A stretch of DNA of 45,822 nucleotides from Candidatus Hermodarchaeum yapensis. Its GTDB lineage: Archaea > Asgardarchaeota > Hermodarchaeia > Hermodarchaeales > Hermodarchaeaceae. This document shows positions 1,150-1,817 of the stretch, in pieces. Position 1 is the first letter of the stretch; every line of letters begins with the position of its first letter. The stretch spans positions 1-45,822 of the forward strand of contig JAEOSK010000022.1 of NCBI GenBank assembly GCA_016840405.1, written 5' to 3'. The position numbers were made by a program, and so were the translations under genes. Below the pieces are notes generated by a model, which did no database searches, had not been told where the DNA came from, and was given only the letters and a program-made list of their open reading frames with translations.

Positions 1150-1672
1150 CTTAAGGTAGCCAAATGCCTTGTCGGATAAGTACCGACGCGCATGAATGGA
1201 TCAATGAGGTCCCTACTGTCCCCGCCTGCTACCCGGTGAACCCACCTCCTGGCGAACAGTCCAGGGACACCCAAAGGGAAGAGAAGACCCTGTGGAGTTT
1301 TACTGCAGCCTGTTGCTGGGTTACGGGCATTGATGCAGAGCGTAGCTGGGAGACGTCGAAGCCACCCTTGCGGGGGTGGTGGAGTCGCCAATGGAACACC
1401 AGCCTTTAATGTTTGCAGCTCTTAATGCACCAAACGGCGCATGACACCAGCAGGTGGGCAGTTTGGCTGGGGCGGCACGCCCACGAAAAGATATCATGGG
1501 CGCCCAAAGGTCAGCTCAACGCGGACAGAAACCGCGTGTAGCGCGCAAGGGTAAAAGCTGGCTTAACAGTGCCCCGAAAAGCAAAGGGCGCTGGTGCGAA
1601 AGCAGGGCCTAGCGAACGATCAAACCCTACCGATGAGGGTTGGTCACGTCAGAAAAATTACCCCAGGGGTAA

Positions 1673-1817
1673 TCTCAGGCCGGACGAGAACGGCGAGTCA
1701 CACACTTCTCAAACACCACTACGTGCTCTTTGGAAGCGGAGCCTGGGGTAACCGCAACCAAGAGCATCACATCACGATTACAAAACTCGCCAAGTAACAC
1801 CGACCTGGGACCCTAAA
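1673..1817 (+). ncRNA. ORF-less 145-nt rRNA intron, bulge-helix-bulge-like, in the peptidyl-transferase loop (U2449-C2452 equivalent); boundaries ambiguous by 2 nt
   Basis: Removal restores CCCCAGGGGTAA|CAGAGTCGTCGC. Terminal stem TCTCAGG/CCTGGGA; exon-intron 4-bp helix GGGT/ACCC or AGGG/CCCT flanked by A-rich bulges; internal stems GGCGAGT/ACTCGCC, TGCTCTTTGG/CCAAGAGCA and GCGG/CCGC. No group I core and no terminal G. Confidence 0.85.

Follow-up and report, generated by a model that had tools for sequence, protein, structure and literature searches.

A 145-nt intron in the 23S rRNA gene of Candidatus Hermodarchaeum yapensis carries in its apical loop an exact antisense copy of the adjoining 5' exon, and the 8-nt core of this copy is demonstrably under selection at the nucleotide level, beyond protein coding. 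We propose with moderate confidence that the loop is an intron-borne exon-binding element, which would pair with the 5' exon and assemble the splice site; both the pairing and this role we infer. The window, that is, the whole stretch of 45,822 nucleotides analysed (contig JAEOSK010000022.1), holds the 3' part of an archaeal 23S rRNA gene at positions 1-2319 (Rfam RF02540). Two inserts interrupt this gene: one of about 700 nt at about 455-1155, and the 145-nt insert with the exon-complementary loop. The splice site of the latter consists of the following features (^ marks a splice point here and below; the E. coli numbering is taken from an alignment to the E. coli sequence).

1672-1816, plus strand: 145-nt ORF-less BHB intron in 23S rRNA, between E. 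coli A2450 and A2451; an insert in the Rfam LSU_rRNA_archaea alignment
1666-1669, plus strand: GGGG, exon strand of the 4-bp central helix of the BHB, pairing with 1811-1814; read by hand, three of the four pairs in the constrained fold
1811-1814, plus strand: CCCU, intron strand of the central helix; from the sequence and the constrained fold
1670-1672, plus strand: three-nt 5' bulge UA^A, cut after its second nucleotide; from the sequence, junction deduced from relatives
1815-1817, plus strand: three-nt 3' bulge AA^A, cut after its second nucleotide; from the sequence, junction deduced from relatives

The ends of the intron are set by comparison with relatives. Intronless relatives carry an uninterrupted GGGGATAACAGAG or GGGGTAACAGAG at this place, and copies from the same genus (G002, G011) have T instead of the window's A at 1672, which gives the junction GGGGTA^...TAA^ACAG; from these two facts it follows that the intron spans 1672-1816. 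Joining 1671 to 1817 produces GGGGTA-ACAGAG, as found in intronless relatives and in metagenomic 23S genes, and a near-identical copy of 148 nt is present in a Promethearchaeota MAG (L054). The splice point proposed in the first-pass annotation, GGGGTAA^CAG, is thus one base off the supported GGGGTA^ACAG, and because of a run of A the two give the same product in the window.

The BHB geometry itself is observed: two 3-nt bulges lie on opposite strands with a 4-bp helix between them, as read in the window partly by hand, and the constrained fold shows the flanking helix as well. The strict hBHBh' form is not found in the sequence, since the intron-intron helix is present but the exons are unable to pair beside the 3' bulge, and the outer helix of the strict motif is therefore absent. 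The window intron is a relaxed BHB motif, unless the loop-exon duplex substitutes for that outer helix. On the side of the enzyme, the window's genome (G000) has two matches to the EndA domain (PF01974) above the cut-off (C14:43413-43667, L261, and C36:10730-10990, L262), and their open frames of 188 and 202 amino acids are separate genes, which suggests a two-subunit enzyme. If the two form a broad-specificity heterotetramer, a perfect motif may be less needed.

Away from the splice site the intron body is a rod of three stems, P2, P3 and P4, interspersed with large internal loops; the element sits in the apical loop. The features of this part, together with the exon segments which concern the loop, are the following.

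1657-1673, plus strand: interrupted palindrome at the exon end, able to fold on itself (-6.9 kcal/mol) and so to hide GGGG; from the sequence and folding
1658-1667, plus strand: 5'-exon target of the loop, exon nucleotides -14 to -5; reverse complement of the loop
1673-1683, plus strand: 5' strand of the intron-intron helix beside the BHB, pairing with 1800-1810 with one C/A mismatch; from the fold, invariant in four mini-introns
1800-1810, plus strand: 3' strand of the same helix (11 positions); from the fold
1692-1698, plus strand: 5' strand of stem P2, pairing with 1785-1791; two compensatory changes among mini-introns
1785-1791, plus strand: 3' strand of stem P2, derived from the terminal codons of the endonuclease ORF now lost; from comparison with relatives
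1723-1733, plus strand: 5' strand of stem P3, pairing with 1758-1767; from the fold and mini-intron comparison
1758-1767, plus strand: 3' strand of stem P3; from the fold and mini-intron comparison
1736-1755, plus strand: apical hairpin with stem GCGG/CCGC (1736-1739 with 1752-1755) and a 12-nt loop at 1740-1751; from the minimum-energy fold
1743-1750, plus strand: candidate conserved exon-binding core CUGGGGUA; CUGGGGU(A/G) in family A
1774-1779, plus strand: ACGAUU, weak candidate complement of the 3' exon (1821-1826, one G-U pair); read by hand

Read as its reverse complement, the loop sequence CCTGGGGTAA (1742-1751) is identical to exon TTACCCCAGG (1658-1667); each of the two occurs once in the window, and the bases next to the 10-nt complement are unpaired on both sides (A/C and G/G). 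The first-pass annotation had read this complementarity correctly, as exact over 10 nt and placed in a loop closed by GCGG/CCGC. It was equally right about the interrupted palindrome of the exon, ATTACCCC-A-GGGGTAAT at 1657-1673, whose final two bases belong to the intron, and about the likeness of the loop to the ligated junction CCAGGGGTA^AC, which it matches at 10 of 11 positions. When the intron core was compared with 30 nt of either exon flank, a complement of at least 10 nt arose in 11 of 5000 dinucleotide-preserving shuffles and one of at least 8 nt in 256 of 5000.

Homologues of the intron were collected from an exon-pattern scan of metagenomes, from 400 genomes of the phylum and from the DNA behind endonuclease homologues. 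All intron sets were gathered with one exon pattern, TTACCCCAGGGGTA, so the sets represent introns behind this pattern only. The comparison of the 14-nt exon pattern with genome contigs gave mostly bacterial chance matches among those listed, L054 being the useful one, and some 25 metagenome matches were set aside as not being 23S rRNA, including a family that starts with AATTTACCCC. The family of the window intron, which we call family A, has 20 distinct members, four of them ORF-less mini-introns and 16 with an ORF; their hosts belong to at least two families, whose exons differ at position -15 (A, C or G).

The core CUGGGGU(A/G) is present in 20/20 distinct members of family A, about 75 nt from the intron 3' end. 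The first-pass annotation had suggested looking for the complementarity in homologous introns, and the 8-nt core is indeed kept in every one, synonymous codon positions included. The exon target paired in every member is 1659-1666 (-13 to -6), which corresponds approximately to E. coli 2438-2445 in the 3' strand of helix 74. The conservation is confined to the core: members of family A often have a mismatch to exon position -14 or -15, so that pairing beyond the 8 nt is not kept. Also, the closing stems around the core vary by eye between GCGG/CCGC, GAGU/ACUC, GCUU/AAGC and GCUU/GAGC, and among the four ORF-less introns the loop bases neighbouring the core vary while the core does not. These four are close relatives (about 90% identical), and the covariation count across them finds all eight loop-exon pairs invariant and is thus uninformative; the exon target is invariant in the whole of family A, and the loop-exon pairs show no compensatory change there.

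The origin of the intron can be traced in the same genus. In genome G007, locus L004 holds at this site an intron of 665 nt whose LAGLIDADG_3 ORF encodes 192 amino acids, and the mini-intron shares with that longer intron about 29 nt at the 5' end and 75 nt at the 3' end; these shared ends identify the window intron as a deletion derivative of a LAGLIDADG intron. The mobile form itself is not what the window holds, its 145-nt copy having no ORF. The homology to L004 restarts exactly at the element, which in the L004 ORF encodes Ser-Gly-Val within the C-terminal motif xGV(T/S)HPEKR. One would argue, then, that the element is nothing but leftover coding sequence from the endonuclease C-terminus (Ser/Thr-Gly-Val), complementary by chance to a low-complexity palindromic exon. 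The homology of the 3' 75 nt of the mini-intron to the ORF end fits this explanation, and so does the shuffling result, by which an 8-nt complement is not rare for the mini-intron and is less rare still for introns of 700 nt.

The codon alignment of the 16 ORFs makes such a relic unlikely. The core overlaps the codons xCT-GGG-GTR. Of 42 columns in which all sequences use a four-fold-degenerate codon, no more than two have an invariant third base, and both belong to adjacent codons inside the element, a coincidence which coding leaves unexplained. Coding leaves equally unexplained that the first base of the xCT codon takes all four values (Ala, Pro, Ser or Thr) while CT is constant. The second codon is GGG in every ORF, whereas glycine elsewhere in the same ORFs uses all four codons, and the following valine is GTA or GTG only, both third bases being able to pair with U. 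Downstream of the element the third bases vary: a proline three positions further uses four third bases and an arginine six positions further uses three. An apparently free-standing endonuclease homologue, not located in this intron and 59% identical, has ATA GGT CTC at the aligned place. The constancy of the core in four introns that have lost the ORF, amid variable loop bases, also counts against a relic, as do the analogous elements in two non-coding intron families described below.

Because the exon end is a palindrome, the loop resembles the exon in the sense orientation too, and only the centre of the palindrome discriminates between the two. One could therefore read the loop as an imitation of the 5' splice site or of the ligated junction CCaGGGGUAAC, which the splicing or homing endonuclease would meet as a decoy or as another possible site; in its favour, 10/11 positions agree with the junction in the window, and sense and antisense are nearly identical. 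The discriminating base decides otherwise. In all 20 members the base of the element that faces exon A-7 is U, where A would have been synonymous, and this constant U identifies the element as antisense to the exon, as opposed to a copy. Furthermore, 7 of the 20 members have G in place of A, a change that makes the sense match poorer and leaves the pairing intact as G-U, and no second CCCY partner or flanking helix is available for an alternative BHB. With the orientation found in the two other families (see below), we consider imitation of the splice site very improbable.

Two more families of ORF-less introns occupy the same site. Family B has four distinct members of 144-193 nt (L017, L177, L162, L249) and family C has 11 of 288-381 nt (L016, L191, L234, L235, L202, L238, L221, L213, L236, L237, L239); both have the same BHB geometry (read by hand) and are otherwise unrelated in sequence. 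They have in common one conserved hairpin module, the strands of which complement exon 1 (-18 to -10) and exon 2 (+5 to +11). The 5' strand of the module is GGUAAGUUU against exon AAACUUACC in family B and GGUAACUU against exon AAGUUACC in family C, and the sole base that differs between the two strands tracks the C or G of the exon at -15. The 3' strand, GACAACU, complements exon-2 positions +5 to +11; L162, whose exon reads GUCGUC for GUUGUC, matches it by an A to G change at the pairing position, the only change in the block. The exon-1 complement stands 61-78 nt from the intron 3' end, and family C has a second one near its 5' end (GGGUAAC, or AACUUUUCU in another register in L016 and L191). 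In both families the antisense match is 8-9 of 8-9 positions and the sense match 5-6. For single sequences both complements together arose in 8-33 of 2000 shuffles and the exon-2 complement alone in about one of four, so that the weight of these complements comes from their conservation, their position in one module and the two compensatory changes.

The two-stranded module leads to the main rival of our proposal, namely that the element is an exon tether or ligation splint, which would hold the 5' exon after cleavage for the RNA ligase and in families B and C also the 3' exon. The presence of exon-1 and exon-2 complements on two strands of one module, each with a compensatory change, is what one would expect of such a device, and the exons have no pairing with each other beside the splice sites. 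For the window's own family A, which has no convincing exon-2 complement, the tether explains less, and the remainder of domain V keeps the exons together in any case. We regard a tether as possible but rather unlikely as the general explanation; in families B and C it may be the role of the module. In its distance from the intron 3' end the weak candidate ACGAUU of the window agrees with family B's exon-2 element; it is absent from L003 and L151 and from the ORF-bearing members of the other host family, and as an exon-2 complement it is doubtful. Another candidate for family A, CAACTC, was rejected: although found repeatedly in the ORFs, it is part of the catalytic LAGLIDADG motif and fails to track the exon change in L245.

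Assembly of the splice site by the loop, the reading which we prefer, would proceed as follows. In the pre-rRNA the core (1743-1750) would pair with 5'-exon nucleotides -13 to -6 (1659-1666). Left to itself, the exon end UUACCCC-A-GGGGUAA would pair its CCCC arm with GGGG and hide the G residues needed for CCCU (1811-1814); by taking the CCCC arm, the loop would free GGGG for the 4-bp central helix. The loop-exon duplex would abut this helix and could stack on it, standing in for the missing outer helix, and the splicing endonuclease would then cut at UA^A and AA^A. The first-pass annotation had named pairing with the exon as one of its options. The conserved complement, the complements of families B and C and the predicted need of the central helix for a blocked 5' arm all add to this option, whereas the pairing and its effect on splicing are, as stated at the outset, our proposal.

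The predicted energies speak for this reading: -6.9 kcal/mol for the self-hairpin of the exon, -14.8 kcal/mol for the helix-74-like pairing with the upstream strand and -19.2 kcal/mol for the loop-exon duplex. Minimum-energy folds of the junction region favour the exon hairpin and lack the central helix of the BHB; with exon positions -14 to -6 and the element blocked, GGG pairs with CCC and the BHB appears, in the window as well as in L002, L249 and L162. Several features of the fold make the pairing demanding. The first C of the core competes with U1814 for G1666 of the central helix. By our own reasoning, a 12-nt loop with a 4-bp closing stem puts steric strain on a duplex of 8-10 bp; since no more than one loop base remains on the 3' side, opening of the GCGG/CCGC stem would probably be required. 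Besides, the loop caps the distal end of a rod of about 30 bp, and to reach the exon it must bend back by way of the large internal loops.

The stability of the predicted duplex relative to the helix-74-like pairing (-19.2 vs -14.8 kcal/mol) would also suit an action after splicing, in which the excised, probably circular intron binds the helix-74 strand of other pre-23S molecules or of intronless rDNA and serves as an assembly checkpoint or as an aid to spread. Stable excised circles are consistent with three metagenomic contigs of relatives (L253, 915 nt; L256, 1152 nt; L259, 1078 nt), which contain the ORF-bearing intron only, circularly permuted with the junction CCCTAA^AT and with no rRNA flanks. 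L253 has a 123-nt terminal repeat, which implies a circle of 792 nt, and L256 has repeats with a 678-nt period. These contigs look like assembled circular introns and, if they are RNA-derived, support the predicted intron ends. On the other hand, the introns' own stems take up part of the exon complements of families B and C, and BHB introns are not known to undergo reverse splicing or RNA-guided homing; both points count against an antisense action of the excised intron. Altogether we judge it quite improbable, and the re-insertion which the first-pass annotation had also considered found no support.

The same annotation had raised a third option, that the intron guides the modification of peptidyl-transferase-centre nucleotides in the manner of the Haloferax tRNA-Trp box C/D intron. 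The complementarity itself would fit a guide, and nothing else does. In 1672-1816 there are no RUGAUGA or CUGA boxes and no ACA-pocket architecture, as the annotation itself had observed for C/D and ACA boxes, and the intron gives no Rfam match even at E values up to 10. The option is thus unsupported, and we find a modification guide scarcely credible.

Compared with known systems, the intron resembles the archaeal 23S BHB introns, such as that of Desulfurococcus mobilis (I-DmoI), and their ORF-less derivatives: two 3-nt bulges flank a 4-bp junction helix, the body is a rod-like hairpin, relatives have a double-motif LAGLIDADG_3 ORF, and the permuted contigs of relatives are consistent with circular excised introns. 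Unlike these introns, it is located at A2450/A2451 in an Asgard archaeon and has a conserved 5'-exon complement outside the BHB. In the latter feature it is similar to the guide sequence of group I introns (P1/P10) and to the EBS-IBS pairs of group II introns, where an intron segment complements the exon near the splice site (here the pairing is presumed); in families B and C adjacent intron strands would address both exons. Contrastingly, there is no ribozyme core and cleavage is by a protein enzyme, and the exon targets are at -18 to -6 and +5 to +11 and not at the last and first exon bases. No Intron_gpI match is found in the 145-nt intron, nor any Rfam match, Intron_gpI included, in family C.

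A precursor-specific fold that competes with the mature exon fold is familiar from the BHB of archaeal pre-tRNA, with its anticodon-intron pairing, and Kjems and Garrett in 1991 reportedly proposed alternative pre-rRNA conformations for archaeal rRNA introns. In our intron, unlike in those cases, the remodelling would fall to a second, distant intron segment, which would form a pseudoknot relative to the BHB. The tRNA-Trp intron of Haloferax volcanii, which contains a box C/D guide, shares with our intron the complementarity to its own exon, but the window intron lacks C/D boxes and its target is not positioned as for methylation. In the searchable literature, including reviews and surveys of archaeal BHB and group I introns, no exon-complementary internal element is described; the intron is of an ordinary kind, and the exon-complementary feature appears to be undescribed.

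BHB introns are usually seen as passive substrates, defined by the motif at their ends alone. Should the enzyme be able to act only after an internal element has remodelled the exon, then parts of the intron other than the BHB would be functional, and this would explain the conserved fold of the ORF-less introns at A2450/A2451. It would be a case of RNA-guided substrate assembly in protein-catalysed splicing, situated at the catalytic centre of the ribosome, where mis-splicing would be lethal. The proposal matters, too, for the order in which Asgard archaea fold their rRNA and remove its introns, and for the idea that group I and BHB introns are linked. As to this link, the site A2450/A2451 adjoins L2449, the classic group I site, and the elements could thus be vestiges of a group I guide sequence. 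It can tentatively be suggested, as a possibility of rather low probability, that Asgard BHB introns at the peptidyl-transferase-centre site use RNA guides like ribozyme introns, the 5'-exon element and, in two families, a 3'-exon partner building the motif and holding the exons. Should the elements be vestiges of group I guides, this would give sequence-level support for the descent of BHB introns from group I.

Some further observations concern the same genes. The insert at about 455-1155 of the window has an intact LAGLIDADG_1 ORF at 576-1052 and a weak Intron_gpI match (25 bits, E 3.7e-4, under the gathering score); this sub-threshold match agrees with the group I intron that the first-pass annotation had placed at L1923. 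In the 23S gene of L255 a second LAGLIDADG_3-like ORF occurs at 1411-1782, about 210 nt downstream of the intron 3' end, and on this sequence evidence the gene would have a further endonuclease intron. A 288-aa homologue of the intron endonuclease in L251 (384-1250) lies between ordinary-looking ORFs with no rRNA nearby, and is apparently either a free-standing copy or one hosted otherwise. An otherwise intronless 23S gene from another family of the phylum (L018, genome G029) has a 32-nt insert in helix 89 at about 1545-1580, which is probably a mini-intron. The 23S sequences of L167, L217 and L218 read GGGGTA-ATTGAGTGGTCTCC as against GGGGTA-ACAGAGTCGTCG elsewhere, with the conserved bases matching E. 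coli C2452 and A2453 changed; this may be an unusual peptidyl-transferase-centre sequence. Finally, a recurrent non-rRNA element, ...AAA(T/C)TTACCCCAGGGGTAAATTTACCCC(A/C/T)GGTT(A/G)AG..., was met in L156, L163, L175, L176, L179, L190, L195, L198, L203, L207, L208, L222, L224 and L225; it is a long palindrome-like repeat of several hot-spring or sediment metagenome contigs.
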